This document shows, piece by piece, positions 1 to 15,889 of a stretch of DNA of 64,000 nt. The translations under genes and the position numbers were made by a program. The notes under the pieces were generated by a model. That model was not told the DNA's origin. It made no database searches and saw nothing but the letters and a program-made list of their open reading frames with translations. How positions within the stretch are numbered: position 1 is the first letter of the stretch; each line of letters starts with the position of its first letter. Source of the stretch: Halanaerobiales bacterium (lineage in GTDB: Bacteria; Bacillota; Halanaerobiia; Halanaerobiales; M55B127); contig JAGXLU010000001.1 in assembly GCA_018334565.1 (NCBI GenBank), positions 61,248-125,247 of the forward strand. The letters run 5' to 3'.

Positions 1-197
1 TCACCTGTTAATACTGCCCAAACTCCAGGCAAACTCTCTGCTTTGGTTTTATCTATATTAACAATTTTTGCGTGTGCATAAGGACTTAATTTCATTTTGG
101 CATGTAACATACCTTGTATTTCAATATCATGAACAAATTGAGCATTTCCAGTTACTTTTTCTAATGCCTTAATTCTCTTGACACTTTTACCAATCAT
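1..197 (-). CDS. XDH/aldehyde-oxidase family molybdopterin-binding large subunit, N-terminal fragment (gene runs off the window start)
   Basis: Own translation of the reverse strand from the ATG at 197 gives MIGKSVKRIKALEKVTGNAQFVHDIEIQGMLHAKMKLSPYAHAKIVNIDKTKAESLPGVWAVLTG. This is the typical N-terminus of CoxL/XdhA-type Mo subunits. It starts 8 nt after the stop of the 2Fe-2S subunit gene. It is absent from the ORF track because it is truncated. Confidence 0.75.
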   Translation of the reverse strand, partial: MIGKSVKRIKALEKVTGNAQFVHDIEIQGMLHAKMKLSPYAHAKIVNIDKTKAESLPGVWAVLTG

Positions 198-205
198 TTC
201 TTCAG

Positions 206-682
206 TCACGATTGACTACCTCCCTTCTTCTCAGCTGCACGTTTAACCGCATTTCTAATAGAATAATACCCTGTGCAGCGACAGATATTACCCGATAGAG
301 CAATATCGATATCTTCATCAGAAGGATCAGGATTTCTATCCAATAATGCCTTGGTAGACATGACCATTCCAGGTGTACAAAAACCACATTGGATCGCATT
401 CTCCTCTATAAAAGCCTCCTGAATATCACTGATCTCTTCGCCAACTGATTGTCCCTCTATCGTTTCTATATCAGAACCATCAGCTTCCACAGCTAAAATG
501 ATACAACTTGTGACAGCCTGACCGTCCATTATAACAGTACAGGCTCCACATTCACCTTCACCACAACCTTCTTTGGCACCGGTAAAATGTAACTTCTCTC
601 TCAGCATATCAAGAAGTATCTCATTATCTTTAACATCCAACTCATAATTTCTTCCATTTACTGTAAAGTTAATGGTTTTCAT
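206..682 (-). CDS. XDH-family [2Fe-2S] small subunit (CoxS/XdhC-type iron-sulfur subunit)
   Basis: 158 aa. It has the plant-type ferredoxin motif CGEGECGACTV and the second-cluster motif CGFCTPG...CRCTGY. It lies between the FAD and Mo subunit genes. Confidence 0.9.
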   Translation of the reverse strand: MKTINFTVNGRNYELDVKDNEILLDMLREKLHFTGAKEGCGEGECGACTVIMDGQAVTSCIILAVEADGSDIETIEGQSVGEEISDIQEAFIEENAIQCGFCTPGMVMSTKALLDRNPDPSDEDIDIALSGNICRCTGYYSIRNAVKRAAEKKGGSQS

Positions 683-1536
683 TACTTATCACCTGCTTTC
701 CATAGTCTGGAAAGAATTCTACGAGTATAAACCTGTGACATCTTTATCCGATATTGTTTTGTGCTGCGTACATCATCAATCGGATTAATATTTTCTTTAA
801 CCTTTTCTAATATTTTCTCTTGTTTATCTGTAAAACTTCCCACTCCAAAAAAGATCTCACTGAAATCTAAATAGACGGGGGTAGGGGCAACTGCACCCAG
901 AGCAAAGGCCAAATATTCTTCCTCTTCAGATATATATCCTGCTACACCGACTCCACTTAAATCAGGCCCTTTTGTTCTTCTTTTCTTTAAATAGGCCCCT
1001 TTGCCATCAGCAGAATGTTTTTTGACTAAAAGCCCTTTAACAATTTCATTATCTTTTAATACATTTCGTTTTACACCTGTTGCAAATTGTTCTAAAGGTA
1101 CTTGCCTGCTTTCCTCTTTACTTTCAATTACGACCCTTGTTTTGAGTACTAAAAGCCCGGGAAACATATCTGCACCAGGTGAAGTAGTACAAAGATTTCC
1201 TACAACTGTTGCTCTATTTCTAACCTGGTGAGCCGCAACTTCTAAAGCTGAATCAGCTAATATTTTATAATCCTTATTCACCAGTTCACTATCGATAATT
1301 TCATTACATGTTATTGCAGCACCTATAAATAATTCTTGATCCCTTTCTTCAATTTTAGAAAAAACTTCGATATTTTTAATATCAATAATAGTATCAGGTT
1401 TTCTCATCTTATGCTTCATATCAACGAAAAGGTCGGTACCACCTGCCAATAATGCGGTTTCACTTTCCTTATTTTCAAGTATATCAAATATTTCTTCAAG
1501 ACTTTCCGGTTTATAATATTCAAATTCATTAAGCAT
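682..1536 (-). CDS. XDH-family FAD-binding medium subunit (CoxM/XdhB-type)
   Basis: 284 aa. The LLAGGTDL FAD-binding motif, the size and the position (1-nt overlap with the 2Fe-2S gene) fit the molybdenum hydroxylase FAD subunit. Confidence 0.85.
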   Translation of the reverse strand: MLNEFEYYKPESLEEIFDILENKESETALLAGGTDLFVDMKHKMRKPDTIIDIKNIEVFSKIEERDQELFIGAAITCNEIIDSELVNKDYKILADSALEVAAHQVRNRATVVGNLCTTSPGADMFPGLLVLKTRVVIESKEESRQVPLEQFATGVKRNVLKDNEIVKGLLVKKHSADGKGAYLKKRRTKGPDLSGVGVAGYISEEEEYLAFALGAVAPTPVYLDFSEIFFGVGSFTDKQEKILEKVKENINPIDDVRSTKQYRIKMSQVYTRRILSRLWKAGDK

Positions 1537-1571
1537 TTATATACTTCACCTCCATCATTCTCATAACCAAT

Positions 1572-2504
1572 CTAAGGAACTATTCTGGTACCGGCGTTAC
1601 CGTGGACGGCCTCTAAAACATTTTCAATCGAAGTTATAATTGCCTTTTGGCCTCCACTTTCTACAAAATCAGCTGCTGCCTGTACCTTGGGTTTCATACT
1701 TCCCTCTCCAAAGTGACCCTTATTTATATGCTCTTCTATTTCTTTTATCTTAACCTCTTTCAATGCCTCTTCATCTTCTTGTCCATAGTTAATATAAGCG
1801 TTCGATACATCTGTCAATACCAAAAAGATATCCGATTTAATCTCTTGAGCTAAAAGACAGCCAGCCCTGTCTTTATCAATTACTGCTTCAATACCATGAA
1901 TTTTGTTATCTTTTTCTACAACCGGGATTCCGCCCCCACCAGAGGCTATGACAATTTCTCCGTTCCTCACTAGATCATTAATTATAGGGGCTTCTACAAT
2001 TTTTTTAGGAATAGGAGATGCTACTACTTTTCTCCAGCCTCTTCCACTATCTTCTATCCAATTTTCATTTTTTGCTTCTATCATTTTATCAGCATGTTTT
2101 TTATCATAAAATGGCCCAACAGGTTTGGTTGGATTTTGAAAAGCTTTATCATTTTTATCTACCAAAACCTGAGTAACAACGGTTGCTACATTTTTATCAA
2201 GATCAAGTTCAGTAAAAATATTATGCAAACTGTTTTGCAGCATATAACCTATAAAACCCTGTGTTTGTGAACCACAAACATCGAGAGGCATTGCTGGTAC
2301 ATCATCTTTTGCTTTATCTTGCTGAATTAAAATATTACCAACTTGAGGACCATTTCCATGGGTAATAACAACTTCATTGCCTTCGGCTATAAGTTGTGCA
2401 ATCTGTTTACTTGTTGATAATACATTATGAAACTGCTCTTCAGCTGTGCCATTTTGTCCTGGTTGCAATATTGCATTTCCACCTAAAGCGATTGTTAATT
2501 TCAT
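1572..2504 (-). CDS. arcC: carbamate kinase
   Basis: 310 aa. Hallmarks: N-terminal IALGGNAIL, ITHGNGPQVG and ASGGGGIPV. Confidence 0.9.
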   Translation of the reverse strand: MKLTIALGGNAILQPGQNGTAEEQFHNVLSTSKQIAQLIAEGNEVVITHGNGPQVGNILIQQDKAKDDVPAMPLDVCGSQTQGFIGYMLQNSLHNIFTELDLDKNVATVVTQVLVDKNDKAFQNPTKPVGPFYDKKHADKMIEAKNENWIEDSGRGWRKVVASPIPKKIVEAPIINDLVRNGEIVIASGGGGIPVVEKDNKIHGIEAVIDKDRAGCLLAQEIKSDIFLVLTDVSNAYINYGQEDEEALKEVKIKEIEEHINKGHFGEGSMKPKVQAAADFVESGGQKAIITSIENVLEAVHGNAGTRIVP

Positions 2505-2530
2505 AAAAATTCCTCCATTTGCTATCTATT

Positions 2531-2568
2531 AATTAGAAAATAAAGGAATCCTGTTTAAACAGGATTCC
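2531..2568 (-). terminator. rho-independent terminator or attenuator between the cyclase-family gene and arcC
   Basis: A perfect 10-bp stem ggaatcctgt/acaggattcc with loop ttaa lies at 2545-2568. On the minus strand it is followed by tttattttct. Confidence 0.6.
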
Positions 2569-2581
2569 CATTATATATATT

Positions 2582-3334
2582 TTATTCTTCAAATGCTACA
2601 CAACGACCGATACTTGTTTCAAGATCTACACCTTTCCAGGGGAAGAATCCTATTTTGATTCTTCTGTTTAGTATTTTATCAATTTCTCCACCTAAATTTT
2701 CAGCATGGATAATTCCTTTTGGGAATAGTTTGGTGTGCATTAGTTGCCTGCTTTCAGGATGTGAAAATACTTCATCTAAAGGCTTGCCCAAATGTTCTTC
2801 ACATTCTTCAGCAAGATCAGGTCTCAGCTTTTTACAGACTGTATTCATAGGATGATCTGCAGAACCACAATCAACACCAATCCATTTTATCTTCTTTTCT
2901 ATTGCCCATTGAGCAAATTCCATATTTGGACCGGGATGTTTCATGAAGTATCTTTCTTCATCTGCTTCTGGCTGATCCCAACCATATTTATGGTAACCAG
3001 TATTTATAACTAAAATATCATGTTCTTTAACTTCAACTCTTTCTTCAATCATCTCTGAAGTATAAATATCATAATCGCCTACAGCATCACTTAAGTCAAC
3101 TACAACTCCATCTCCAAAGAGGTCTTCTAAAGGGATACTAGCCATATCTCTTCCAGCAGTCCAGAAGTGTCTTTCTCCATCCAGATGGGTTCCAATATGA
3201 TTACTAGTTTTTATAATCTGACCATTTACTCTCTCAGTTGAAAGACGCTTAAAATACTTCATTTCTAGAGGTTCATAAGTTGGCCAAGGTGGTGTGGAAA
3301 TACCAATCTTTTGAGTTAAATCATATAATTTCAT
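2582..3334 (-). CDS. cyclase-family metal-dependent hydrolase (kynurenine formamidase / isatin hydrolase-like)
   Basis: 250 aa. It carries the family metal-binding motif HxGTHxDxxxH (HIGTHLDGERH). It lies 14 nt downstream of the AllG-like gene. Confidence 0.8.
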   Translation of the reverse strand: MKLYDLTQKIGISTPPWPTYEPLEMKYFKRLSTERVNGQIIKTSNHIGTHLDGERHFWTAGRDMASIPLEDLFGDGVVVDLSDAVGDYDIYTSEMIEERVEVKEHDILVINTGYHKYGWDQPEADEERYFMKHPGPNMEFAQWAIEKKIKWIGVDCGSADHPMNTVCKKLRPDLAEECEEHLGKPLDEVFSHPESRQLMHTKLFPKGIIHAENLGGEIDKILNRRIKIGFFPWKGVDLETSIGRCVAFEE

Positions 3335-3348
3335 TAAAATCTCTCCTT

Positions 3349-4770
3349 TTATTTAATATATTTTTGGGCAAATGCCCTAATTGCCGATTTAAAACATTCT
3401 TCGGGCGGATCTACTAAGCCTGCCCCAATCTGTCCTATACCCGGTTCTTTATGAGCAATACCGGTATTGATAGCCGGCAAAATTCCTGTTTCTATTATTT
3501 TCAATAAATCAATACCTGTTGGTGTTCCCCTGAAGTTCAGTGGGGGAATGGTGAAGTTATCATTTTCATCAACTGTGATCTCATACATATCCTTGGTAAA
3601 TCTTATAGAATCAGCAACTGTTCCTCCGACAAAACCTACTATAGCAGGAGCAGCTGCCATGGCAAAACCACCTACCGCAGCTGTCTCAGAAATCGTACTG
3701 TCTCCAAGATCAGGACAGGCATCTTCTTCTGTATAACCAGGGAAGTAAAGACCGTCAACTATTTGGGCTTCACCTACAAACCATCTATCTCCTAAACCAC
3801 TAATCCTAATTCCAAAACGGACGCCATTTCTGGCCATTGCTGTTAATACAGTACTATATTCTATTCCGTGAGCAGCATCCATAGTTGCTTTAGAAGCAGG
3901 CATCGATAGATTTAAATAAAAGTGCTCATTGCCTGCCATAAATTTAATTATTTCTTTTATTTCTTTATTTGTATAATTTGTTTCAAGTAGAAATGGAGTA
4001 ATTTCTCTGATAAAAAGTGCTGTTGCTGCTTTATTCCTATTATGCACTTCATCACCCATGTGCAATGCTTGAGAAGTAATATTTTTGAGATTAATACCAT
4101 CTGTTTTACTTAAAGCTTCTCTTAAAGCAGGTGCTAGTGATTTTTCCATCCACTTTAGTTTTTTGATCACATCCGGACCATTGGCACCAAATCTTAACAC
4201 TTTTCCAAGACCTTCATTCAATGTTGTAAATGCCTTATTACCATAAGTCTTATTTTCTACAACCCAGACCGGCATAGAAGGTGAAACTATACCTGTCATA
4301 GGACCAACAGCATTATGATGGTGAGCAGCATCAAAAGTCACCTGACCATCATCCAACATTTTACGGGCTTCTTTTTCATTTTCTGCCCAACCTTCATATA
4401 TACATGCCCCAATAGCTGCACCCTGCATTGGACCTGACATGTCTTCCCATTTTTCAGGTGGGGCAGCATGTAAAATCATCTTATCAGAAAAGTCTGGTAA
4501 AGCATCTTTAGCAGTTTGCACATCTATTACTATAGGTTCACTTTTTTGAATTTTCTCTACAGCTTTTTCATTCGCTGCTTCAATTTTATCACTGATATTT
4601 TCTATCTCATCTAAAAGACCTGCCATTTCTTTGTCTCCACCAGCTGCTGGTTTCCAATCAACCTGTACAGCATTATATCCTTCATCTTTTAAGTTTTCGG
4701 CAAAAGATTCTAGACCAATGTTTATAACATTTAACTCTTCTTTAAATAAATCTTCTAATTTCTTAGTCAT
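3349..4770 (-). CDS. DUF1116 protein, YlbE/AllG-like (putative oxamate carbamoyltransferase subunit)
   Basis: 473 aa. Size and sequence character resemble YlbE. It sits immediately after an FdrA-like gene and near a carbamate kinase, as in E. coli fdrA-ylbE-ylbF-ybcF. The call rests on recollection of the family plus synteny. Confidence 0.7.
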   Translation of the reverse strand: MTKKLEDLFKEELNVINIGLESFAENLKDEGYNAVQVDWKPAAGGDKEMAGLLDEIENISDKIEAANEKAVEKIQKSEPIVIDVQTAKDALPDFSDKMILHAAPPEKWEDMSGPMQGAAIGACIYEGWAENEKEARKMLDDGQVTFDAAHHHNAVGPMTGIVSPSMPVWVVENKTYGNKAFTTLNEGLGKVLRFGANGPDVIKKLKWMEKSLAPALREALSKTDGINLKNITSQALHMGDEVHNRNKAATALFIREITPFLLETNYTNKEIKEIIKFMAGNEHFYLNLSMPASKATMDAAHGIEYSTVLTAMARNGVRFGIRISGLGDRWFVGEAQIVDGLYFPGYTEEDACPDLGDSTISETAAVGGFAMAAAPAIVGFVGGTVADSIRFTKDMYEITVDENDNFTIPPLNFRGTPTGIDLLKIIETGILPAINTGIAHKEPGIGQIGAGLVDPPEECFKSAIRAFAQKYIK

Positions 4771-4784
4771 ATTATCTCTCCCCC

Positions 4785-6338
4785 TTAATTTAGATCACTT
4801 AAAATTTTATTTACTACGCGTACAGCCTGAACGTTAGTGGGGAGTACTTTAGCTCCAACCTCACGTAATTTTTCTTCCTGCACATGAAGATTTTGAGGAT
4901 CTTTTTCAGTCCCACATACAGAAGCAATGACTGATAAATATGCTCCCCGGTCAGCTACTTTTGTTTTTGCTTCTTTTATAGCTTTTGCAGCTTCACCGGC
5001 CGGATCCATATGAGATCCATAACCCAACACTACATCAAGAAGTATAACTGCTACCTCTTTATCTTCAGTTTCTTCAGCCATTCTTTCATTTCGCAGTGAG
5101 GGCTCAATCATGGGGTGAGGTTTGCCTTTTGTAAATTCGTCTTCACCTAGGTCAATAACTGTATTTTTAATACTTTTTAGATTTTCTTTTAAAGCAAATT
5201 CATCTTTTAACGGAGTATTAGAATAAACATCTTCATTTTCTTCAGTTAAAAGTATAACGGCTTCACTACAGAGAGTTCCGCCGGTATAAAGACCTCGTAA
5301 ATATTTTTGAGAACTGGCCATTTTTTTAGTTTCTTTTTCTGCAATCTCTGCTATTTCTTCATCTTTTAGACTGGCCGAACTTACTTCATCTTCTCCCTTG
5401 ATAAAAGCTGCTGCTTTGAGAGCTGCATCTTCTAAAGTATCAGCCCAGATTGCATCTGTACCTTTTACAACTGCAGAATCACCACCCAAGAAATTAACGA
5501 TCACGGGTTTTTTAAGTTTTTTGACTTCATCCATAATTTTTTTACTAACTTCTTTTGCTGGTGGTTTGGAAACTAAAACGATTATTTCAGTTTCTTCATC
5601 ATTTTCAAGAGCTTTCATATCCTTAATCATTTCAATGCCTTTAACCCTAGACTTGAGGTCACGGCCTCCGGTTCCAATAACCTGAGTAAGACCTACTCCT
5701 TGCCTATCGACTAAACTCGAGACGGCCTGGGCACCGGTTCCAGATGCAGCAACAATACCAACTGGCCCTCTGCTTACTACATTGGCAAAGGCAAGTGGCG
5801 CTCCATTTACAATTGCTGTACCACAATCAGGACCCATTAATAATAGATTTTTTTCTGCCGCCATCTTTTTAAGCTCGATTTCATTTTCTACTGGAACATT
5901 GTCACTAAAAAGCATTACATGTAGACCTCTTTTTAAGGCCTTTTTAGCTTCCCGAGCTGCATATTCACCCGGTACAGATATAATCACTAGATTTGAATCT
6001 GGCTGGAGGTCCAAAGCTCCATCCAGGGAACCAGGATTATATTCTTTTTCTTCATCTGAGGAAGCCTTTTTGTCTGCTAACATTTGATTAGTTTCATCGA
6101 TAGTTTTATCCAATACTTCTTTTTGACCATCTATTACTATTACAAGATCATTTGGTTTTGCAGCTTCTGCTTCTGGTAATAGCAAATTGGCATTTTTTAA
6201 TATTTCTTTATTGGCATCAGTACCCATTACAATGGTTGCTTCATTAATTCCGTCCAACGCTTTAATATCTTTAGAAATTGACATTAAGCTAACCGAATCA
6301 AAATAGGTACCCTCTTTAACAAGTGCCTTTTTAGCCAT
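4785..6338 (-). CDS. FdrA/AllF-like acyl-CoA synthetase (succinyl-CoA ligase alpha-like) family protein
   Basis: 517 aa. The N-terminus (KEGTYFDSVSLMSISKDI) resembles E. coli FdrA. Glycine-rich CoA-ligase-like segments are present (GPDCGTA, GIVAASGTG). An AAGGAG SD lies upstream. Confidence 0.8.
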   Translation of the reverse strand: MAKKALVKEGTYFDSVSLMSISKDIKALDGINEATIVMGTDANKEILKNANLLLPEAEAAKPNDLVIVIDGQKEVLDKTIDETNQMLADKKASSDEEKEYNPGSLDGALDLQPDSNLVIISVPGEYAAREAKKALKRGLHVMLFSDNVPVENEIELKKMAAEKNLLLMGPDCGTAIVNGAPLAFANVVSRGPVGIVAASGTGAQAVSSLVDRQGVGLTQVIGTGGRDLKSRVKGIEMIKDMKALENDEETEIIVLVSKPPAKEVSKKIMDEVKKLKKPVIVNFLGGDSAVVKGTDAIWADTLEDAALKAAAFIKGEDEVSSASLKDEEIAEIAEKETKKMASSQKYLRGLYTGGTLCSEAVILLTEENEDVYSNTPLKDEFALKENLKSIKNTVIDLGEDEFTKGKPHPMIEPSLRNERMAEETEDKEVAVILLDVVLGYGSHMDPAGEAAKAIKEAKTKVADRGAYLSVIASVCGTEKDPQNLHVQEEKLREVGAKVLPTNVQAVRVVNKILSDLN

Positions 6339-6350
6339 ATTAACAACTCC

Positions 6351-6390
6351 TTTTTAAAAAATCCCCACCCCATATTGATTGAGAGTGGGG
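6351..6390 (-). terminator. hairpin plus U-tract directly abutting the allF-like RBS
   Basis: The stem is ccccac (6363-6368) / gtgggg (6385-6390) with a 16-nt loop. On the minus strand it is followed by attttttaaaaa, which runs straight into the AAGGAG of the FdrA-like gene. Confidence 0.55.
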
Positions 6391-6428
6391 ATGTTATTAT
6401 CAATCAATACTAATTAATTGTTAAACAC

Positions 6429-7142
6429 CTATGGCATAACTAATTCTTCATTTTTTTCTAATAATTCATCTTCAACATCATAGTCTAATTCATTACCAAC
6501 CATTTCTTTAACATAATCTTTAACTGCTGCATTCCAATATTGCTGATCTACATAAAATACTCTTGCTCCACCCAGTTCATGCTGATATTCTGGATAGGGA
6601 TATGAAGGTTGAGCCATTCCGATACCCCATCTTTTTAGGCCATTATAGCTTTCGAATGTAGACCAAACTTCCTGATTTTTTTGTTCTTCAAAAGCATAAA
6701 CTAACTTCCTATAATAAAGGGTTGCACCAATTCTCAAACCCCTTTTAAATGCCATGGTGTGTAATGATATATTGAGATCTTTGTCTCTTACTCGTCCATT
6801 TGCAAATCCAACTATCTCACCATCAATTGCTCCTACAAATAAGTAGGGGTCTTTAAGTCTATTTCTCAAATAGCCGAGTAATTCAGCATAAATTCTGGCT
6901 CCTACGATATCATAAAAGTCCTTAGCACCAGTCTCCATAAATTTCTTGACATAATCCAATAACATCGGTATTTCTTTATCTTTAACTTCTCTAATCAACA
7001 TTGTGGAACCGTCTTTTAATTCAATCTTACATGGCTTCGGTGTAGCCATATCTAACTGTGGTGCACTTAAAAATGGTTCTAATTCCTCTACCTTAAAAGT
7101 AATTTCTTTTTGTGATACTTCAACTGGACTTTCCTTATACAT
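6429..7142 (-). CDS. hypothetical protein, divergent GNAT-like acyltransferase fold (237 aa from the SD-supported start)
   Basis: The ORF track gives 6429..7184. The internal ATG at 7142 is preceded by AAGGAGGA plus a 7-nt spacer, whereas the ATG at 7184 has no SD. The segment GEIVGFANG...LHTMAFKRGLRIGATLYYRKLVYAFE resembles the GNAT beta4-alpha3 acyl-CoA-binding region, but with a non-canonical motif. Confidence 0.5.
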   Translation of the reverse strand: MYKESPVEVSQKEITFKVEELEPFLSAPQLDMATPKPCKIELKDGSTMLIREVKDKEIPMLLDYVKKFMETGAKDFYDIVGARIYAELLGYLRNRLKDPYLFVGAIDGEIVGFANGRVRDKDLNISLHTMAFKRGLRIGATLYYRKLVYAFEEQKNQEVWSTFESYNGLKRWGIGMAQPSYPYPEYQHELGGARVFYVDQQYWNAAVKDYVKEMVGNELDYDVEDELLEKNEELVMP

Positions 7143-7343
7143 TAATAATTCCTCCTTAAAGTTTTTATAATTATATTTTTTCATATTTTTTAAACTATTT
7201 TACATAAATCATAGCTTTTTTGGGTTCTATCACTCCTTTCTACATAATATATATGCATTTAACCCTAGCTAACATTTTTAGTACTATTTTATAAATTCTC
7301 GATAATTATCAAGATTACCTTTGTAATTATTCATAAATATTTA

Positions 7344-7370
7344 GCATAAATTTTGTTAAATAATTTATGC
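7344..7370 (-). terminator. AT-rich hairpin overlapping the mmdB-like stop codon (weak terminator candidate)
   Basis: A 9-bp stem gcataaatt/aatttatgc with a 9-nt loop. The downstream tract on the minus strand is only moderately U-rich. Confidence 0.3.
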
Positions 7371-8495
7371 AAATATTGACATCATTACACCAGCTGCAAC
7401 AGCAGATCCTATAGCCCCAGCCACATTAGGACCCATAGCATGCATCAATAAATAATTGGACGAGTCAGCCTTTTGACCTTCTTTTTGAACCACACGGGCT
7501 GACATTGGAACAGCTGCAACCCCTGCAGCCCCAATCATGGGATTAACTTTACCATCAGTTAATTTATACATCAACTTACCAACTAAAAGACCTGACAGGG
7601 TTCCAATTGCGAAAGCAATAACACCTAATATGAGGATTTGAATAGTATCTATTCTTAAAAATTTATCTGCTGTGGCACTTCCTCCCACGGCAAGTCCCAA
7701 TAAAATAGTTAATATATTAATTAAAGAATTTTGCGCTGTATCACTTAATCTATCTACTACACCGCTTTCCCGAAATAAATTACCAAGCATTAACATCCCA
7801 ATCAAGGGTCCAGCTTCGGGTAAAATAATAATTACAATAATTGTAACTGCAATTGGTAAAATAATTTTCTCGCTTTTAGAAACCGGTCTAAGTTGTTTCA
7901 TTTTTGTTGTTCTTTCTTTTTTTGTAGTAACTAAATTAATTAAAGGTGGCTGAATAACAGGAACTAATGCCATATAAGAATAAGCGGCAATTGCTATCGC
8001 ACCCAACATTTTAGGAGCCAGATTTGAAGCAACATAAATTACAGCTGGCCCATTTGCTCCACCTATAATGCCTATTGAAGCAGCTTCCTGCCCCGTAAAA
8101 CCAAGTAATATTGCACCCAAAAAGGTAATAAATACCCCTATCTGGGCAGCTGCTCCTAAAAGAAGTCCTTTAGGGTCAGAAATTAAAGGACCGAAGTCTA
8201 TCATTGCACCAATTCCCATGAAGATTAATGGTGGAAATATACTTAAAGAAGCACCTTTGTAAAAATATCTTAAAAGACCAGCAGGTTGACCATTGAACGC
8301 TTCCTGCATCATACCTGTCAAGGGCAAATTAACCAGCAACATCCCAAAGGCAATCGGTACTAAGAGTAAAGGCTCATACTTTTTGACTATACCGAGATAT
8401 AATAAGACTAAAGATATTATTATCATTATAAAATGGGGTATATCTAAAGTCATTATACCGGTTTGCTGTAAAAATTCCACAAAAGCTTGTACCAA
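7365..8495 (-). CDS. mmdB: Na+-translocating decarboxylase beta subunit (OadB/MmdB/GcdB family integral membrane pump)
   Basis: 376 aa and polytopic. The sequence is typical of OadB-family beta subunits (N-terminal LQQTGI, GPLISDP, GAAAQIG, LMHAMGPNVAGAIGSAVAAGV). Confidence 0.9.
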   Translation of the reverse strand: MVQAFVEFLQQTGIMTLDIPHFIMIIISLVLLYLGIVKKYEPLLLVPIAFGMLLVNLPLTGMMQEAFNGQPAGLLRYFYKGASLSIFPPLIFMGIGAMIDFGPLISDPKGLLLGAAAQIGVFITFLGAILLGFTGQEAASIGIIGGANGPAVIYVASNLAPKMLGAIAIAAYSYMALVPVIQPPLINLVTTKKERTTKMKQLRPVSKSEKIILPIAVTIIVIIILPEAGPLIGMLMLGNLFRESGVVDRLSDTAQNSLINILTILLGLAVGGSATADKFLRIDTIQILILGVIAFAIGTLSGLLVGKLMYKLTDGKVNPMIGAAGVAAVPMSARVVQKEGQKADSSNYLLMHAMGPNVAGAIGSAVAAGVMMSIFA

Positions 8496-8527
8496 TTTTC
8501 TAACCTCCTATCATAATAAAATCTAAC

Positions 8528-8965
8528 TTATTCTATGACAACTAATGTTTCTCCTGATTCAACTTTTTGATTTTCACTTATCTTAATATTTTTAACTTTA
8601 CCAGAACCTGGTGCATAAACTTCATTTTCCATCTTCATTGCCTCTAAGACTAAAATTAAATCACCAGATTTAACTTCTTGACCTTCTGATACTTTTATTT
8701 CTAAAATCGTTCCTGCCATAGGAGCTTCCACTGCTCCCCCCTCTAAACTGGGTATAGAAGAAGGTTTTTTCTTAGCCTTTGGTTTTGTTCTAGATTTTGT
8801 TTTATTTACATCAGCAGATGAACTACTCTTAGTTTCAAAAGTTTTTTTAGTAGTTTTGCTTTTACCTTCAGCAGTATCAGTATTAACTGTTTCTGCTGTT
8901 TTTATCTCTTCTACTTCTACTTCATATTCTTCATTATTGACCTTTACTTTAAATTTCCTGCTCAT
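8528..8965 (-). CDS. mmdC: biotin carboxyl carrier subunit of the decarboxylase (MmdC/GcdC-like)
   Basis: 145 aa. The C-terminal biotinyl domain has the EAMKMENEV biotinylation motif. An S/T/K-rich linker precedes it. The start overlaps the upstream gene (ATGA). Confidence 0.85.
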
Positions 8966-9378
8966 AATAACTCTCCTTTACTATTTTCTGTTAGTTTTCC
9001 ACCCCGGGCAAATTTCCCCCAAACAGAGATATTATCTTCAACCTTACTTGCTTTTCTAATTTTAAATTTGCTGCTTTTTTTAACATCTTCCCGGCTCATT
9101 ATAGCAGCTATTATGGCTGCTATTTTTTCATCTTCACGATTAATTTCAGTTTCCAGTTCTATATCTTTTCTTTGAATATCGGATCTTTCTTCGGCAAAAT
9201 CTAATTGTTCAGAATAACAAATATTTTTAACTATTCTTATTGCCAACATCAATAAATATAATATAGCAAATACTATTACCATACCCAGAATAGCAACCTG
9301 GAAACTTGAAATTAACTTCTCATTAATAGTCATTGATTGAACAAGAGACGGATCTTTTAAAAGATCTAGAGGATTCAC
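8962..9378 (-). CDS. mmdD: OadG/MmdD-like small membrane-anchor subunit
   Basis: 138 aa. The GTG start lies 7 nt after GGAGG. There is a single N-terminal TM helix ([20 protein letters not shown]) and an IAAIIAAI motif typical of the OadG family. Confidence 0.65.
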
Positions 9379-9400
9379 ATTAATGCCTCCTTTTTATGTT

Positions 9401-10945
9401 CTATAAAGGTATATTGCCATGCTTCCTATTTGGCCTGTCTTCTTTTTTATTAATTATTGACTCTAATGCCATAATAATCCTGGGTCTTGTTTGGCTTGGA
9501 TCAATTATATCATCAACATAACCTTCTGCGGCTGCTCTATAAGGATTAGCAAAGTTTTCCCTATATTCCTCAATTTTTTCCTGTCTTTTCTTGCCTGAAT
9601 CATCAGCTTTTTTTATTTCTTTTCTAAAAATTATATTAGCTGCACCCTGAGGTCCCATAACAGCAATTTCTGCATTTGGCCATGCAAATACATAATCAGC
9701 ACCAAGGTGACCACTGCTCATCGCTATATAGGCTCCCCCATATGCTTTTCTTAAAATTACATTTATCATAGGAACGGTAGCTTCTGAATAAGCATAAAGT
9801 AATTTTGCACCATGTCTTATTACTCCACCATACTCCTGTTCTACACCCGGTAAGTAACCAGGTACATCTGTTAATGATAGAATAGGAATATTAAAAGAAT
9901 CACAAAATCTAATAAACCTTGCTGCTTTATCAGATGCATCGATATCTAATGTACCTGCTTTAAAATTTGGTTGGTTTGCGATTATCCCAACTGAACGCCC
10001 ATTTAATCTCGCAAAACCAACTACAATATTTTTTGCAAAATATTTATGAACTTCAAAAAAATCCTTATTGTCAACTATTTTTTCGATTACATCCCTTATA
10101 TCATATGCTTTATTGGGATTGACAGGTACGATCTCTTTGAGTTCTTCTTCGATGCGTTCGGGGGGATCCTCAATTTCAATAACAGGAGCTCCTTCTAAAT
10201 TATTATTTGGTATAAAGGAGATTAACTTTTTGATTTGTTCAAAACTGTGTTCCTCATTATCGGCCAAGAAGTGTGCTACACCACTAACCTGGTTGTGCGT
10301 TGATCCTCCCCCAAGGTCTTCTGCACTTACTTCTTCTCCAGTTACAGATTTAACAACCTGAGGACCAGTTATAAACATTTTGGAAGTGTGATCAACCATA
10401 AATATAAAATCTGTGATGGCTGGAGAATATACTGCCCCCCCAGCACAGGGGCCTAAAATAACAGAGATCTGTGGAATAACACCTGAATTTTCGGTGTTTC
10501 TCCTAAAAATTTCACCATACCCTTTTAGAGAGTTAACTCCTTCTTGGATCCTAGCTCCACCTGAATCAAGAAGCGCTATAAATGGGGCACCTGATTTTTT
10601 TGCCAAGTCCATAACCTTACAAATCTTCTTAGCATGCATTTCACCGAGTGAACCACCCATTGTTGTGAAGTCCTGAGCATATACATATACTGTTCTTTGA
10701 TCAATTGTGCCTTGACCGGTGATTACACCATCAGCAGGTAATTCCTTCTCATCCATACCTAAATCTTGTGAATGATGTTCTACAAACATGCCAATTTCAT
10801 TAAAACTACCATCATCAAATAACTTATCGATCCTTTCGCGGGCGGTTAGTTTATTTTTTTTATGCTGCTTTTCTATTCTTTTTTCTCCTCCGCCTTTAGA
10901 TATCTTTTCTCGTTTTTTCTCTAATTCTTGAATTTTATCTTTCAA
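9401..10945 (-). CDS. mmdA: acyl-CoA carboxyltransferase subunit (methylmalonyl-CoA decarboxylase alpha / PccB family)
   Basis: 514 aa. The N-terminus GGGEKRIEKQHKKNKLTARERIDKLFDDGSF and the two crotonase-like carboxyltransferase halves are typical of MmdA/PccB. The size fits MmdA better than the longer GcdA. Confidence 0.9.
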   Translation of the reverse strand: MKDKIQELEKKREKISKGGGEKRIEKQHKKNKLTARERIDKLFDDGSFNEIGMFVEHHSQDLGMDEKELPADGVITGQGTIDQRTVYVYAQDFTTMGGSLGEMHAKKICKVMDLAKKSGAPFIALLDSGGARIQEGVNSLKGYGEIFRRNTENSGVIPQISVILGPCAGGAVYSPAITDFIFMVDHTSKMFITGPQVVKSVTGEEVSAEDLGGGSTHNQVSGVAHFLADNEEHSFEQIKKLISFIPNNNLEGAPVIEIEDPPERIEEELKEIVPVNPNKAYDIRDVIEKIVDNKDFFEVHKYFAKNIVVGFARLNGRSVGIIANQPNFKAGTLDIDASDKAARFIRFCDSFNIPILSLTDVPGYLPGVEQEYGGVIRHGAKLLYAYSEATVPMINVILRKAYGGAYIAMSSGHLGADYVFAWPNAEIAVMGPQGAANIIFRKEIKKADDSGKKRQEKIEEYRENFANPYRAAAEGYVDDIIDPSQTRPRIIMALESIINKKEDRPNRKHGNIPL

Positions 10946-11072
10946 CTTGGTCCCTCCCTAAAAAATATATTTTGACAAATATATTGTCGTTTTCCATTAT
11001 AAATAATTCAATAATTTAATTCACTTTACCTTTGTTATCTTTTCACATATTTTTTTTAATTATATTGTACTT

Positions 11073-11918
11073 TTATACAGTAAGACAAAAATAAACCCCG
11101 GACAAGATATCTAAACCAGAACTGCTGCCGAGGTTGATAAGGTTTTGCGCATCTTTCATATACTGAAAAGGATTATAGTTTATATTTTGGTATAATATAA
11201 ATAAACTTTTATTAAATCTTTTTTTCAAAGCTGCTTTTAGATTTAAAGCACTAACCCTTGTTGTCATTTTAAAAAAATCTTCTTTTTTTAAACTTTTTTT
11301 GATCTTTAGTACATCTTCAGCAATACCAGCTTCTACTACAGATAAATAGCCAATTATAAAATCATCACTACTAGGTGTTAAGCCTATTCCCAAACCTATT
11401 AAATCATTTAAATTTCCATTTTTATTGATAAGTATTTTCAATTTTATGTAAAATTGTTTCTGGAGTGGATTTAACTCTTTTGCCTGTGGATTTTTTAAAT
11501 AATCCTTAAAGTACAATATGCTTTTATCCAAACTACCCAAGTTTTTAGTTCCTAGAATCACTTTTTCTGTCATTTTAATTAGATTACTTTTGTTAACTTG
11601 AGTAGTGCTAGGTATTTTGCCAATAAATATTTTTTTATCAGCAATATTTAATTTTTTGTTATTATAAATTATTTTAAATTCATCCAACCGTAAATTATGA
11701 AAATTTAATGCACTTTTTTTTATTTCTTTATATTTATCATTAGGTAATATAAGGTGGTAAGGAGCAGGAATCACAGAACTATCAGTAATTGCAAAACCTT
11801 TATTTTGATCAGTTTGAAAATTTATAACATGATCAAAAATGCTGATTACTTTTGCATTTAAACCATAATTTTCACAGACCAAATCACCTTCAACAATATC
11901 AGAGACCATAATTTTCAC
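11073..11918 (-). CDS. DUF2877 protein, YlbF/AllH-like (putative oxamate carbamoyltransferase subunit)
   Basis: 281 aa. The GLGIGLTPSSDDF motif and the size fit my recollection of the DUF2877/YlbF family. It overlaps the pucR stop by 20 nt. The family assignment is from memory, not a search. Confidence 0.55.
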   Translation of the reverse strand: MKIMVSDIVEGDLVCENYGLNAKVISIFDHVINFQTDQNKGFAITDSSVIPAPYHLILPNDKYKEIKKSALNFHNLRLDEFKIIYNNKKLNIADKKIFIGKIPSTTQVNKSNLIKMTEKVILGTKNLGSLDKSILYFKDYLKNPQAKELNPLQKQFYIKLKILINKNGNLNDLIGLGIGLTPSSDDFIIGYLSVVEAGIAEDVLKIKKSLKKEDFFKMTTRVSALNLKAALKKRFNKSLFILYQNINYNPFQYMKDAQNLINLGSSSGLDILSGVYFCLTV

Positions 11919-13572
11919 CTTTTGTAGCAGTGAAGTTTAACATCTTAAGAGCTATTTCTAAATTTAATTTATCTTCAGGATTATCTAGATTCAATCCTGT
12001 AATTTTCTCAATTCTTTTCAAACGGTAGTGGACAGTGTTGTAATGAATATATATTTTTTTTGCTACATTACTTAAATTTCCATTTTCTTTAAAATATGCC
12101 TTAAGTGTCTTAAGTAATTCTGTGTTGTGAGTTCTATCATACTTTAATAGAGGGTCAATTGTCTTTTTTAAAAAACTATTTTTTTCTTTCTGGTCTATCT
12201 GATAAAGTAGCTTATATACTCCTAGATCTCCAAAGAAATATATTTGATTATGCTTATCTAATTTTTTGGCAACCTGAATAGTCCTTTTCGCCTGTGAATA
12301 ACTTTTATGTAAATTTATAATATCTTTTTGATAATTTCCAATACCAATTTTAACTAAATCTTTATTCCGTTCTTCGATTATCCCCATTACTTTATTAATA
12401 AATGCATTCATATCTTCTTTTTCCTCTCTACCCTCGGGATAGAGCGCTATTAAATAAGTTCCCAAATCTCCCATGATTATATCATCATTGATCACCCGTT
12501 CGGCTGTTTCAAGATATGTTTTTTGTAAATTTTCATTTAAAAGGCCCTTCTTTTTAAAGTGATCTGAGATCAGATCCTTAAGTTCAAAAACAATCACAGA
12601 AAAACCCTTATCTAGGTCCAAACCCATATTATTTCCACGAGTCAGAATAGTCTGTTTATGATTAAACTTGCCTTTTAAAATGTCATAGAGGAGTTCGTTT
12701 CTATACTTAAACTCCACATTGGTAATAGTTCTTTTATTTAATATATCTAATGCTGCTATAGTACTAGCCCATTTCAAGGTAGAAAGGTCTAATTTATTAA
12801 TCATCTTTTTATACTCCCATGAGAAAAGATAACCGAAATGGTTGTTAGGAGTGATTATTGGTATTTTTATAAGGTTTATCTCTCTTTTATTTAAAGAAAC
12901 TAACTTTTTTTTGCATCTATAACCATAAATTTCTTCTTCTGTTTCTTTTTGTCCGTCGGTCGTAATAGTACTTAATAAATCCTCTTTAGTTAATTCTTCA
13001 TTATTATTTGGTATAGAATAAGACATTATTGATATATTGGAATCTGTAATTAAAACAGGATTATTTATCAGTTCAACCAATATAGAAGAGAGTCTATCTA
13101 GACCGTTTTCATATAAAACAGTATTTGTTAAAACCTCATGAATATTTAAGGTCTTTTCCAAAAATCTCGTCTGTACATTTAGAATTTCACTTAAAATTGG
13201 ATTTATAAATTCTGAAAAAGAAAAATCGTAGGGAATTTTAAGAAGTGGAAAATCATATTTTTTTGCTTGATCAATCATAAAGCCAGGTATTTCATTTATA
13301 TATCTACCTGGTTTAATGCCCAAACCTGCTAATTTCTTTTTGGCTAAATTAGGTATTAAGTTTTTTAATGCTTTTTTATCATCTTTAATTGAGTAAAGGG
13401 TAGTAAAAAGAAGTTCCCCCTCTTTTACCCAGTCAACTATATCGGGCACTTCCATAATGTTAACCTTTGTTATGTGGCGGTCTAAACCCTTTTGACCAGA
13501 CAAAACCTCCACTTCATTCATCTTTTCTAAATTTAAGGCTTCAGCAATAGTTATACCAATTAATTCTTTCAT
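11899..13572 (-). CDS. pucR: PucR-family transcriptional regulator (purine catabolism regulator-like)
   Basis: 557 aa. The N-terminal PucR-type ligand-binding region starts LGITIAEAL...VLSGQKGLDRHIT. The C-terminal HTH is LSNVAKKIYIHYNTVHYRLKRIEKITG. Confidence 0.85.
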   Translation of the reverse strand: MKELIGITIAEALNLEKMNEVEVLSGQKGLDRHITKVNIMEVPDIVDWVKEGELLFTTLYSIKDDKKALKNLIPNLAKKKLAGLGIKPGRYINEIPGFMIDQAKKYDFPLLKIPYDFSFSEFINPILSEILNVQTRFLEKTLNIHEVLTNTVLYENGLDRLSSILVELINNPVLITDSNISIMSYSIPNNNEELTKEDLLSTITTDGQKETEEEIYGYRCKKKLVSLNKREINLIKIPIITPNNHFGYLFSWEYKKMINKLDLSTLKWASTIAALDILNKRTITNVEFKYRNELLYDILKGKFNHKQTILTRGNNMGLDLDKGFSVIVFELKDLISDHFKKKGLLNENLQKTYLETAERVINDDIIMGDLGTYLIALYPEGREEKEDMNAFINKVMGIIEERNKDLVKIGIGNYQKDIINLHKSYSQAKRTIQVAKKLDKHNQIYFFGDLGVYKLLYQIDQKEKNSFLKKTIDPLLKYDRTHNTELLKTLKAYFKENGNLSNVAKKIYIHYNTVHYRLKRIEKITGLNLDNPEDKLNLEIALKMLNFTATKGENYGL

Positions 13573-13700
13573 TAATCTTCACCATCCCAAAAATATTTAT
13601 GATTTTTACATATGGTATTATAACATAGATGAATTTATTATGGAAGTATTCACAATATTTTTTTATATTTAAACTACTTTTTTGTGTGTATTAAATAAAT

Positions 13701-13725
13701 AGAGGCAACCATAATGGTTGCCTCT
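13701..13725 (-). terminator. rho-independent terminator of the permease gene
   Basis: A 10-bp stem agaggcaacc/ggttgcctct with loop ataat. A T-rich tract follows on the minus strand. Confidence 0.65.
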
Positions 13726-13812
13726 ACAAATTTACAATTTTAATTATTGTTTATTCAATTATAATATCTATATAATTATTGATTAACTTTATAAATTATT
13801 TGAACTTCTTAT

Positions 13813-15072
13813 TTAGCCCAGGCTGGCTGTGGATTCTGCTTCTTCTTTAGTTCCCGGCAAAACTAAGTTAAGTACAACCCCTGCAAGTGCAGCAAGAGCT
13901 AAACTAGAAAATTCAACTCTACCAAGTTTGAGAACAGCTCCACCAATACCTAATACAAGTATTGTACCACCAATAACTAAATTTCTGGACTCTTTGAAAT
14001 CTGTTTGACTTTCTACCAAAGTTCTAATACCAACAACTGTAATCATTCCATATAAGAGGAATGAAATTCCACCGATGACTGGAGTAGGAATAGTCTCGAT
14101 TAGACCACCAAATTTAGGTATAACAGCCATTGCGATTGCAAATGTAGCTGCAATTCTCATCACAACTGGATCATAAACCTTTGTTAAAGCTAAAACCCCG
14201 GTGTTTTCTCCATATGTTGTATTCGGAGGTCCACCAAATATACCAGCTAAGGCTGTAGCCATTCCATCACCAAGCATGGTTCTGTGAATACCTGGATCAG
14301 TTACTAGTTCTCGTCCTTTACCTATTGTTTCACTGATAGCAAGAATATCACCTACGTGTTCTACCATTGAAACAATGGCAACCGGAGCGATAATGGTAAT
14401 CGCCCTCATTTTAAAAACAGGTACTGTAAATTCGGGCAGTCCCAACCAAGCATTTTGCATTACAGGACTAAAGTCAACAATACCTACGATAATTGCAACT
14501 ATATATCCAGTTACTAAACCCACAATAATCGGAACAATTTTTAAGAAACCTTTTGCAAATATTGCTGCTATAATTGCTCCTAAAAGCGAGGCTACTGCTA
14601 CTACAACATTTAATGTGCTACCACCTGCCATATCAATTGCTACTGGTGCTAAAATTAAACCAATTGTCATAATTACTGGACCGGTAACAATTGGAGGGAA
14701 TATCCTTTTGATTAAACTTGGTCCTACCTTATAAATGATAAATGCAACTATAGCGTATATAATTCCTGCAAATATAATACCCCCCTGTGCAGCTGGTATA
14801 CCTCCGTGTTGTTCTATTACTAAAGCTATGGGTGCTATAAAAGCAAATGAAGAACCTAGATAAGCAGGTACTTTCTTTTTAGTAATGAAGTGAAATAACC
14901 ATGTACCAACACCCGCAGTAAATAAAGCAACCGAAACATGTAAGCCGGTTAAAATTGGAACCAAAATTGTGGCGCCGAACATAGCTAGAGCGTGTTGTAA
15001 TCCTAAGAAAACTCCTTGAAAAGTGTTGAGTTTCTTAATATCTCTAACAGCTTCATCTCTTCTTGACTCCAT
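13813..15072 (-). CDS. NCS2/NAT-family nucleobase permease, UraA/PyrP (uracil) subtype
   Basis: 419 aa and polytopic. The NAT signature region TTYGENTGVLALTKVY has Glu rather than Gln, and an upstream VEHVGD is present. Both match UraA-type substrate-binding segments rather than the xanthine/urate (QN) type. Confidence 0.85.
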   Translation of the reverse strand: MESRRDEAVRDIKKLNTFQGVFLGLQHALAMFGATILVPILTGLHVSVALFTAGVGTWLFHFITKKKVPAYLGSSFAFIAPIALVIEQHGGIPAAQGGIIFAGIIYAIVAFIIYKVGPSLIKRIFPPIVTGPVIMTIGLILAPVAIDMAGGSTLNVVVAVASLLGAIIAAIFAKGFLKIVPIIVGLVTGYIVAIIVGIVDFSPVMQNAWLGLPEFTVPVFKMRAITIIAPVAIVSMVEHVGDILAISETIGKGRELVTDPGIHRTMLGDGMATALAGIFGGPPNTTYGENTGVLALTKVYDPVVMRIAATFAIAMAVIPKFGGLIETIPTPVIGGISFLLYGMITVVGIRTLVESQTDFKESRNLVIGGTILVLGIGGAVLKLGRVEFSSLALAALAGVVLNLVLPGTKEEAESTASLG

Positions 15073-15836: not shown

Positions 15837-15849
15837 AGAACTAATTATA

Positions 15850-15879
15850 CATAGCTGCGAGATTAATCTCACAGCCATG
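15850..15879 (-). terminator. hairpin between the convergent nitroreductase and fabF genes
   Basis: A 12-bp stem catagctgcgag/ctcacagccatg. The two positions that mismatch on the plus strand become G:U pairs on the minus strand. The U-tract is weak. Confidence 0.4.
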
Positions 15880-15889
15880 TATTTATAGT

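Follow-up and report, generated by a model that had tools for sequence, protein, structure and literature searches.

A gene island in a Halanaerobiales bacterium that may encode an oxygen-independent oxidative pyrimidine route via barbiturate

The oxidative pyrimidine pathway, whose enzymes are uracil/thymine dehydrogenase, barbiturase (EC 3.5.2.1), and ureidomalonase, has been known biochemically since the 1950s and is regarded as a rare aerobic curiosity. To our knowledge, barbiturase is the only one of these enzymes for which a gene has been identified. Here we describe a 15-kb gene island at the start of a 64,000-nucleotide stretch of DNA from a salt-loving Halanaerobiales bacterium (contig JAGXLU010000001.1, positions 61,248 to 125,247; the whole stretch is referred to here as the window). 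Its genes encode a uracil-type permease, a molybdenum (Mo) hydroxylase of the xanthine dehydrogenase (XDH) family, relatives of Escherichia coli AllF, AllG, and AllH, carbamate kinase, a cyclase-family hydrolase, an Mmd-type decarboxylase pump, a PucR-family regulator, and a conserved protein that we call the orphan. A first-pass annotation had suggested that the island may encode an anaerobic pyrimidine route, and comparative genomics supports that interpretation. We now hold with moderate confidence that the island encodes an oxygen-independent oxidative pyrimidine route that runs via barbiturate and would yield both ATP and a Na+ gradient. Clusters of this kind point to such an oxygen-independent form being widespread; they supply candidate genes for uracil dehydrogenase and for the step after barbiturase, and they give a highly conserved, unannotated family its first functional context. 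A fermenter with this route could gain energy from pyrimidines at two points, through substrate-level phosphorylation and through Na+ export driven by decarboxylation. Neither an anaerobic barbiturate route nor any connection of Mmd to pyrimidines turned up in a literature search, which did not cover subscription journals.

The closest described system is the actinobacterial oxidative pyrimidine pathway, as in Rhodococcus erythropolis, with which the island would share a Mo/FAD/FeS hydroxylase at the first step and the proposed succession of uracil, barbiturate, ureidomalonate, and a malonyl unit. Actinobacterial barbiturase clusters also contain the orphan, AllHFG, and a Mo subunit of the window's subfamily. 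Unlike the actinobacterial clusters, the island has no PF09663 barbiturase, a PF04199 metal hydrolase standing in its stead. In our proposal, the ureido group leaves as carbamoyl phosphate (and thus ATP) rather than urea, and a Na+ pump decarboxylates the malonyl unit in the form of a coenzyme A (CoA) ester. Because the host is a strict anaerobe, the electron acceptor would not be O2, unlike in the aerobic actinobacterial pathway. Since the PF09663 barbiturase is missing, we describe the island as working like the oxidative pyrimidine pathway and not as a member of it.

Three other systems each resemble part of the island. The MmdABCD(E) complexes of Veillonella and Propionigenium and the malonate decarboxylase of Malonomonas rubra share the four subunit types and the AMKM motif, and Mmd-type and malonate decarboxylases accept malonyl-CoA or malonyl thioesters. 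In contrast to those systems, the island's pump lies in a nucleobase cluster, not with mutase/epimerase or mad genes, and its carboxyltransferase scores below the mmdA model cut-off. E. coli AllFGH is an oxamate transcarbamoylase that provides a precedent for phosphorolysis (PMC11326118). Together with AllK, it resembles the island in its three subunit families plus carbamate kinase, in anaerobic operation, and in the proposed phosphorolysis of an N-acyl-urea to carbamoyl phosphate (PMC11326118, PMC9843812). Unlike in E. coli, the island has no AllC, AllD, or AllE genes nearby, five genes separate allH from allFG, the N terminus of AllG carries a segment that in E. coli belongs to FdrA, and the proposed substrate, ureidomalonate, is one CH2 longer than oxalurate. 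If the proposal is right, this newly defined transcarbamoylase would extend to a second substrate. The reductive pathway by which E. coli and Clostridioides difficile degrade uric acid, encoded by XdhD, YgfK, SsnA, HyuA, YgeW, YqeA, YgeY, and YgeX (PMC12507026), is likewise anaerobic and uses an XDH-family enzyme, carbamoyl phosphate, and carbamate kinase. The remaining genes are different, with YgfK, SsnA, HyuA, YgeW, YgeY, and YgeX in the E. coli route. It ends, however, in diaminopropionate and pyruvate and has no decarboxylase pump, AllFGH, cyclase-family hydrolase, or orphan.

In the proposed route, uracil or thymine would be imported by the UraA-type permease and hydroxylated at C6 by the Mo/FAD/2Fe-2S enzyme to (5-methyl)barbiturate, with water as the oxygen donor. 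The cyclase-family metal hydrolase would then open the ring to ureidomalonate, as barbiturase does in actinobacteria, and the AllFGH-like enzyme would split the acyl-urea by phosphorolysis, the reaction that E. coli AllFGH carries out on oxalurate, so that carbamate kinase could make ATP from the carbamoyl phosphate. The malonyl half would become (methyl)malonyl-CoA. As the island lacks a CoA ligase or transferase, the GNAT-fold orphan is the candidate for this CoA-dependent step. Finally, the MmdADCB-type complex would decarboxylate the thioester and export Na+, and the resulting acetyl-CoA (propionyl-CoA from thymine) would be converted to acetate (propionate) with formation of ATP. We infer these substrates and the order of the steps from observed gene content, linkage across phyla, an exchange of cyclase and barbiturase genes, and pyrimidine-type neighbors.

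A scan of one genome per species found the orphan in about 500 genomes, among them members of Chloroflexota, Caldisericota, Elusimicrobiota, Spirochaetota, Acidobacteriota, Actinomycetota, and Bacillota; 80 loci were retrieved (related loci carry L numbers below). Clusters related to the island are present in hundreds of bacterial species. Neighbors were found by tblastn with the window's proteins and extra queries, within 10 kb of the orphan, and counted in the 71 loci outside Halanaerobiales. The cyclase-family hydrolase was the most frequent of the families counted (45/71), followed by AllF (28) and an XDH-type Mo subunit (26). MmdA and MmdB were found in 16 and 18 loci, a Bmp/PnrA-type nucleoside ABC transporter in 15, a cytosine-deaminase-like (CodA-like) amidohydrolase in 13, an NCS2 permease in 7, uridine phosphorylase in 4, and adenine deaminase in 1. 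Carbamate kinase and homologs of E. coli AllC, AllD, or AllE were found near the orphan in none of the 71. Two neighbor families without a Pfam match (12 and 22) were discarded as antisense open reading frames (ORFs) over or beside the orphan in GC-rich genomes. Some loci hold duplicated parts. In a Halanaerobium sp. that is a more distant relative (L008, 7330-14222; orphan 70% identical), there are two tandem cyclase genes, and a second XDH set directly follows the first. Besides Halanaerobium, cultured bacteria with the module include Bellilinea caldifistulae, whose locus (L089) has the cyclase and the orphan. An Anaerolineae locus (L001, 2788-20729) has tandem modules, AllH-AllF-AllG-cyclase-orphan and then orphan'-AllF'-AllG'-cyclase' (557 amino acids), with NmrA-like reductase and XDH genes downstream and an adenine deaminase gene (574 bits, over the equivalog cut-off) upstream beside AllH; it may serve a second substrate, possibly a purine.

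The intermediate of the route is indicated by the ring-opening step. Five actinobacterial loci (L036, L087, L091, L093, and L094), whose genes were re-called with a GC3 filter before the PF09663 search, contain the orphan, AllF/AllG, XDH, and a PF09663 protein (485-492 bits), and no cyclase. In L036, the genes are acyl-CoA ligase, AllG and AllF (divergent), a RutG-like NCS2 permease, orphan, PF09663 protein, and XDH FAD/FeS/Mo subunits; in L093, they are orphan, an AccD-AccA-type carboxyltransferase, PF09663 protein, AllH, AllF, AllG, and XDH. Two activities are known in the PF09663 family, barbiturase and cyanuric acid hydrolase. The residue signature that marks barbiturases within it was defined by Peat et al. 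(PMC3758960). The L093 protein matches barbiturase (PDB 5hwe) with 584 bits and cyanuric acid hydrolases with at most 310 bits, and it has all five barbiturase specificity residues (Asn195, His321, Lys325, Val345, and Ser346), which identifies it as a barbiturase. Its L036 counterpart, at 82% identity, retains four of these five positions. Among the orphan loci, barbiturase occurs in 5, the cyclase in 45, and both together in none. This mutual exclusion points to non-orthologous displacement, which in turn implies that the intermediate is barbiturate and that the cyclase-family hydrolase is the likely ring opener in the anaerobes. That the cyclase stands in for barbiturase had been a guess of the first-pass annotation; the exclusion makes it the most likely reading of these genomes. 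By tblastn, PF09663 genes are absent from the window and from all Halanaerobiales loci. The window's cyclase keeps the HxGTHxDxxxH metal-binding motif, which aligns with that of kynurenine formamidase. The match to kynurenine formamidase itself is only 29 bits, and the score against the arylformamidase equivalog is 40 bits (cut-off 223).

An s-triazine ring could be imagined as the substrate instead, either cyanuric acid or hydroxylated 5-azauracil, with the AllFGH-like enzyme phosphorolyzing biuret or carboxybiuret. Under NCBIfam, the PF09663 proteins would indeed be called cyanuric acid amidohydrolases (464-474 bits, cut-off 360), and the CodA-like hydrolases are related to AtzC. We nonetheless regard this as extremely improbable: the PDB comparison and the five specificity residues indicate barbiturase, uridine phosphorylase and uracil-type permeases are among the neighbors, and a triazine has no C-C bond, so that nothing would be left for an acyl-CoA carboxyltransferase to decarboxylate.

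Two further barbiturase loci differ in arrangement. A metagenomic locus (L099, 1250-3121) has a single 623-residue ORF that joins barbiturase (PF09663) to AllH (PF11392), preceded by a carboxyltransferase gene; this one instance may reflect a genuine fusion, or else an artifact of assembly or stop loss. In Thermobispora bispora (L098, 955-11107), a gene of the carbamate kinase family (41% identity to that of the window) stops a single base short of the barbiturase gene, and a family-III CoA-transferase and carboxyltransferase operon lies 6 kb upstream; the orphan, AllF, and XDH genes are all absent within 10 kb.

The second branch of the proposed route depends on the decarboxylase pump. All four of its subunit types are encoded together in the island (acyl-CoA carboxyltransferase, OAD_gamma, biotin carrier, and OAD_beta). 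The first-pass annotation had tied the mmd genes to the rest of the island, and other genomes do the same: mmdA/mmdB lie near both orphan and cyclase in 16 to 18 of the 71 loci, in Anaerolineales, Caldisericota, and one unclassified metagenome-assembled genome (MAG), in three gene orders. In two Anaerolineales chromosomes (L076 and L079), Mo-MmdA-gamma-MmdC-MmdB-AllF-AllG-cyclase-orphan follow one another on one strand with short gaps. In a second type, represented by L028 and ten other Anaerolineales loci, a nucleoside ABC transporter, MmdADCB, cyclase, and orphan are followed by a CodA-like hydrolase, a fused FeS-Mo hydroxylase, a CDA-fold deaminase, and XdhC. In Caldisericota (L054, L059, and L072), the pump genes and a biotin ligase gene converge on orphan, AllH, AllF, and cyclase. 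Three gene orders in three phyla are unlike a chance insertion, and, judged by these neighborhoods, the mmd operon is part of the island. The first-pass annotation had named mmd genes beside methylmalonyl-CoA mutase or epimerase as a finding that would speak against it; neither family is among the annotated recurrent neighbors, several low-count families having been left unannotated.

The carboxyltransferase scores 885 bits against the mmdA model (TIGR01117; cut-off 998.8). Its best PDB match is the beta subunit of Thermotoga maritima propionyl-CoA carboxylase (739 bits), with glutaconyl-CoA decarboxylase at just 135 bits. It thus clearly belongs to the propionyl-/methylmalonyl-CoA type, as opposed to the glutaconyl-CoA type, and a malonyl- or methylmalonyl-thioester is the expected substrate. 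The residue after its GGAY motif is Ile; at this place, Streptomyces PccB has Asp and AccB has Ile, but some methylmalonyl-CoA enzymes also lack the Asp, so the residue was not used to decide between malonyl- and methylmalonyl-CoA. In three of the actinobacterial loci (L087, L093, and L094), a fused AccD-AccA-type carboxyltransferase of about 675 residues is encoded between orphan and barbiturase (10324-12351 in L093), with no biotin carrier gene noted in the vicinity. This enzyme may correspond, in soluble form, to the carboxyltransferase of the Na+ pump.

Might the Mmd-like complex instead serve the fatty acid synthesis genes that flank the island, working in reverse as a Na+-driven acetyl-CoA carboxylase or removing excess malonyl-CoA, without any relation to the heterocycle genes? 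The island does lie within a fab region, with plsX, fabK-like, fabH, fabD, and fabF upstream and, in relatives, a FabG-like short-chain dehydrogenase/reductase (SDR) downstream. Yet the pump genes of Anaerolineales and Caldisericota lie inside or beside the orphan/cyclase cluster, and no fab family is among the annotated recurrent neighbors, which together make this explanation exceedingly unlikely.

The Mo hydroxylase is the candidate for the first step of the pyrimidine route. The window holds the N-terminal part of its Mo subunit, and L006, with an orphan that shows 92% identity to that of the window, provided the full-length sequence (the Mo subunits of L006 and L015 are 88% identical). 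The first-pass annotation had suggested that its relationship to xanthine dehydrogenases be checked. The L006 subunit reaches none of the XDH equivalog cut-offs (XdhA, 521 bits against 780; PRK09970, 497 against 916; PucD, 454 against 784; XdhB, 353 against 850), and its nearest solved structure is the alpha subunit of 4-hydroxybenzoyl-CoA reductase, not an XDH. The full-length relatives contain GGGFGGKAGIHFE, VNVTRA, YRGFG, and GVAEHP, the last of which retains the catalytic Glu. The barbiturase-adjacent Mo subunits are 53% identical to the window type and share with it GGGFGGKAGIH[FL]E, VNVTRA, GPY.I.N, and YTNK..GTAYRGFG. In the window type, the residue after GGGFGGK is Ala, where bovine XDH has Glu802. 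E. coli XdhA has Gln, not Glu, after GGGFGNK, and we give the Glu802 argument little weight. An Arg 33 residues before the RGF motif is a plausible equivalent of Arg880, which, in the absence of a reference alignment, was not used.

Uptake and salvage genes connect the island to pyrimidines, through the UraA-type permease in the window and through pyrimidine genes in related loci. The permease encoded in the window has 41% identity with E. coli UraA, and its best NCBIfam match is uracil permease (404 bits, cut-off 477), compared with 229 bits for the xanthine permease PbuX. It keeps the uracil-binding residues F73, E241, and G289-E290 of UraA, with Asp in place of H245. In L014, the order is dCTP deaminase, AllH, AllF, one other gene, AllG, CodA-like hydrolase, cyclase, uridine phosphorylase, and orphan, and the uridine phosphorylase scores above its equivalog cut-off (291 bits against 280). 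Dihydropyrimidinase and a RutG-like permease are further pyrimidine-type neighbors in related loci.

All three AllFGH subunit families are present in the island (CoA_binding plus Ligase_CoA, PF06545, and PF11392). AllF is 37% identical to E. coli FdrA, AllG 46% to YlbE, AllH 23% to YlbF, and carbamate kinase 40% to YbcF/AllK. AllH evolves fast: in relatives, its identity is down to 45-51%, compared with 75-92% for the other island genes. Residues 8-56 of AllG (window 4605-4749) match the C-terminal 50 residues of E. coli FdrA (NF004760 positions 506-554); this segment appears to have shifted across the allF-allG boundary, which fits a predicted complex containing both proteins.

It is tempting to read these homologs of the oxalurate enzymes, next to a PucR-family regulator, as an ordinary purine/allantoin-oxalurate cluster. 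Urate would then come from XDH, oxalurate would be broken down by AllFGH with carbamate kinase, and the mmd operon would lie inside by chance. However, no homolog of AllC, AllD, or AllE (allantoate amidohydrolase, ureidoglycolate dehydrogenase, and ureidoglycine aminohydrolase) was found in the window or in 81 loci, allantoinase not being part of the search. Moreover, the Mmd linkage recurs in three phyla in differing gene orders, the Mo subunit falls under every XDH equivalog cut-off, the place of the cyclase is taken by barbiturase and by no purine enzyme, and the permease is of the uracil type. The neighborhood data have thus already largely refuted this reading, and we consider it very unlikely.

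The first-pass annotation had assigned the orphan no role, yet no other member of the module is as tightly conserved. The databases contain 1366 relatives, with about 60% identity across phyla, and an alignment of 25 sequences contains 66 invariant residues. No Pfam or NCBIfam model matches it at E ≤ 1e-3, and a profile built from the 25 sequences has no match in the PDB at E up to 10. The AlphaFold2 model (predicted local distance difference test [pLDDT] score of 77.7) matches GNAT acetyltransferases in Foldseek (E 6e-6, template modeling [TM] score of about 0.5). Against the PDB, Foldseek gives 55 matches at E ≤ 1e-3, and all 50 of the 50 listed are GNAT-type acyltransferases (TM 0.33-0.51). 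The earlier description of the orphan as GNAT-like therefore stands at the level of the fold and falls at the level of the sequence family. Its invariant R134-G135...G139-A140 lies at the beta4-alpha3 junction, where GNATs bind the pyrophosphate of CoA. The best-conserved stretch, residues 164-194 (window 6561-6653; ESYNG.KRWG.GMAQPSYP.P..QHELGG), is also the sole internal region with an AlphaFold2 pLDDT below 50, and in this model it may form an active-site lid or a subunit interface.

Tentatively, the orphan might be an enzyme of a new kind that takes a malonyl group from an acyl-urea or amide donor (ureidomalonate, malonamate, or even the ring of barbiturate) and passes it straight to CoA, producing malonyl-CoA without ATP, although we think this specific activity rather doubtful. 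If it were true, each uracil would yield ATP via carbamoyl phosphate, ATP via acetyl phosphate, and a Na+ gradient, and the module would contain the long-missing genes for the post-barbiturase "ureidomalonase" step in aerobes and anaerobes. Elusimicrobiota have other neighbors. At L010 (10001-14283), the orphan lies beside isocitrate/isopropylmalate-dehydrogenase-family, HMGL-like, and family-III CoA-transferase genes; in L060, L067, and L088, uridine phosphorylase is near the orphan, together with the cyclase in L060 and L067 and an HMGL-like gene in L067. These neighbors suggest further CoA-ester chemistry around the orphan family.

Several observations weigh against the pyrimidine route as proposed. 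The pump's carboxyltransferase stays under the mmdA cut-off, and its thioester substrate is a prediction. Mmd and AllF are both near the orphan in only 4 of the 16 Mmd-bearing loci, so that the two branches may be separable or one may be encoded elsewhere in the genome. Carbamate kinase adjoins the module in Halanaerobiales only, and in T. bispora it abuts barbiturase. The orphan of Elusimicrobiota also occurs alone, or beside Iso_dh, HMGL-like, and CoA-transferase genes. L014 and L012 have no hydroxylase within 10 kb of the orphan. The L028-type Mo enzyme differs from the window type (33% identity, with GGAFGGKE), and its substrate may differ as well. Lastly, the island's regulator belongs to the PucR family, and the adenine deaminase and doubled module of L001 hint at purines.

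Some of these observations would suit a purine route that runs via a 5-substituted barbiturate (uramil, dialurate, or pseudouric acid) derived from xanthine or urate, with the pump decarboxylating an amino- or hydroxymalonyl thioester. The PucR-family regulator would be in keeping with it, the two AllF-AllG-cyclase-orphan sets next to adenine deaminase in L001 would fit the two ureido groups of urate, and the GGAFGGKE of the L028-type Mo enzymes is a motif typical of XDH. We consider this route unlikely, because uridine phosphorylase, dCTP deaminase, cytosine-deaminase-like hydrolases, dihydropyrimidinase, and UraA/RutG-type permeases recur near the module, and because the enzyme found in place of the cyclase carries every residue of the barbiturase signature, and barbiturase acts on barbiturate without a substituent. 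The Ala of the window-type Mo subunit, at the position of bovine Glu802, also counts against it.

Loci that have AllHFG, cyclase, and orphan and no Mo enzyme within 10 kb (L014, L012, and L025) would fit a hydrolytic, Rut-like route without barbiturate. There, uracil would be opened to ureidoacrylate, AllFGH would free carbamoyl phosphate, aminoacrylate would go on to malonic semialdehyde, and the Mo enzyme would oxidize this to malonate for the pump; aldehyde oxidoreductases do exist among XDH-family enzymes. Against this, the actinobacterial module is linked to a verified barbiturase and to the same Mo-enzyme subfamily, and we know of no precedent for direct hydrolysis of aromatic uracil. 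We judge the Rut-like route quite unlikely, and the route via barbiturate remains the one we prefer.

No PucR homolog was found in the loci outside Halanaerobiales. A 12-mer, TWACAAAGGTAA, occurs as an exact copy upstream of both mmdA and the orphan gene; it was found post hoc in AT-rich intergenic regions. Four of its five matches in the window lie inside the island (including 11584-11595 and 13461-13472), and 8 of 100 shuffles had as many matches or more. The copy upstream of mmdA is kept in L022 and L015 and has one mismatch in L005, which amounts to partial conservation overall. The 12-mer could be a shared operator, a weak lead from sequence. In an Rfam scan of positions 1-16500 (E up to 1), the only match was the permease hairpin, below the gathering score, with no riboswitch.

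The ORF listing and scans with Pfam and NCBIfam profiles place 15 genes in the island, all on the minus strand, with E-values well past chance (Table 1). The gene list, coordinates, and strand given in the first-pass annotation are confirmed, and its family assignments were all correct.

Table 1. Genes and sequence elements of the island, by position in the window
Feature	Position	Strand	Evidence or remark
NCS2 nucleobase permease, UraA/PyrP/RutG type	13813-15072	-	PF00860
Terminator-like hairpin 3' of permease gene	13699-13727	-	13-bp stem, then T-rich tail
PucR-family transcriptional regulator	11899-13572	-	PF07905, PF17853, PF13556
AllH/DUF2877-like subunit	11073-11918	-	PF11392, 76.7 bits
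12-mer TAACAAAGGTAA upstream of mmdA, weak candidate for shared operator	11026-11037	-	
MmdA-like carboxyltransferase subunit of biotin-dependent decarboxylase	9401-10945	-	PF01039, E 5e-204
Small membrane subunit, OAD_gamma/MmdD-like	8962-9378	-	PF04277, TIGR01195
Biotin carboxyl carrier, MmdC-like	8528-8965	-	PF00364, EAMKM biotinylation motif
Na+-translocating carboxybiotin decarboxylase beta subunit, MmdB/OadB-like	7365-8495	-	PF03977, E 1.5e-154; TIGR01109, 483 bits (cut-off 191)
Motif TTACAAAGGTAA upstream of orphan gene	7315-7326	-	Kept at the same place in L024 and L015
Orphan, 237 amino acids, GNAT-fold	6429-7142	-	ATG after AAGGAGG
Terminator- or attenuator-like hairpin ATCCCCAC...GTGGGGAT then TTTTT, in orphan-allF gap	6355-6392	-	Read from sequence
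FdrA/AllF-like subunit, succinyl-CoA-synthetase-alpha-like	4785-6338	-	PF02629, PF00549; NF004760, 525 bits (cut-off 433)
AllG/DUF1116-like subunit	3349-4770	-	PF06545, 328 bits
PF04199 cyclase-family metal hydrolase	2582-3334	-	PF04199, 122 bits
Hairpin between cyclase and carbamate kinase genes	2544-2569	-	11-bp stem, T-rich tail
Carbamate kinase (arcC)	1572-2504	-	TIGR00746, 430 bits (cut-off 358)
FAD subunit of XDH-family hydroxylase	682-1536	-	PF00941, PF03450
2Fe-2S subunit of XDH-family hydroxylase	206-682	-	PF01799, PF00111
Mo subunit of XDH-family hydroxylase, first 69 codons, cut by window edge	1-209	-	GTG at 209, GTGA overlap with 2Fe-2S stop

The start of allH overlaps the end of the PucR gene by 20 nucleotides, or by 11 if the ATG at 11909 is the start. 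With hairpins and T-runs after the permease, orphan, and cyclase genes, several transcripts are possible. The island is closely matched in another MAG (L015, contig JAGYMU010000001.1), with 91-99% protein identity over the island genes that are complete in the window. The first-pass annotation stated that the cluster is cut by the window start, which is so, and that further genes lie unseen beyond it, which the relatives contradict. In close relatives, the cluster stops directly after the Mo subunit and is followed by an Asp23-family gene and an SDR/FabG-like gene (L005, 19405-20729), so that the part lost at the window start should be the remainder of the Mo subunit gene only. Upstream of the island lies a conserved housekeeping region with pta, ackA, yceD, plsX, fabK-like, fabH, fabD, and fabF (15890-25226), and the island looks like an insertion that splits a fatty acid synthesis cluster. 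At its upstream junction is a nitroreductase gene on the plus strand (15354-15836).

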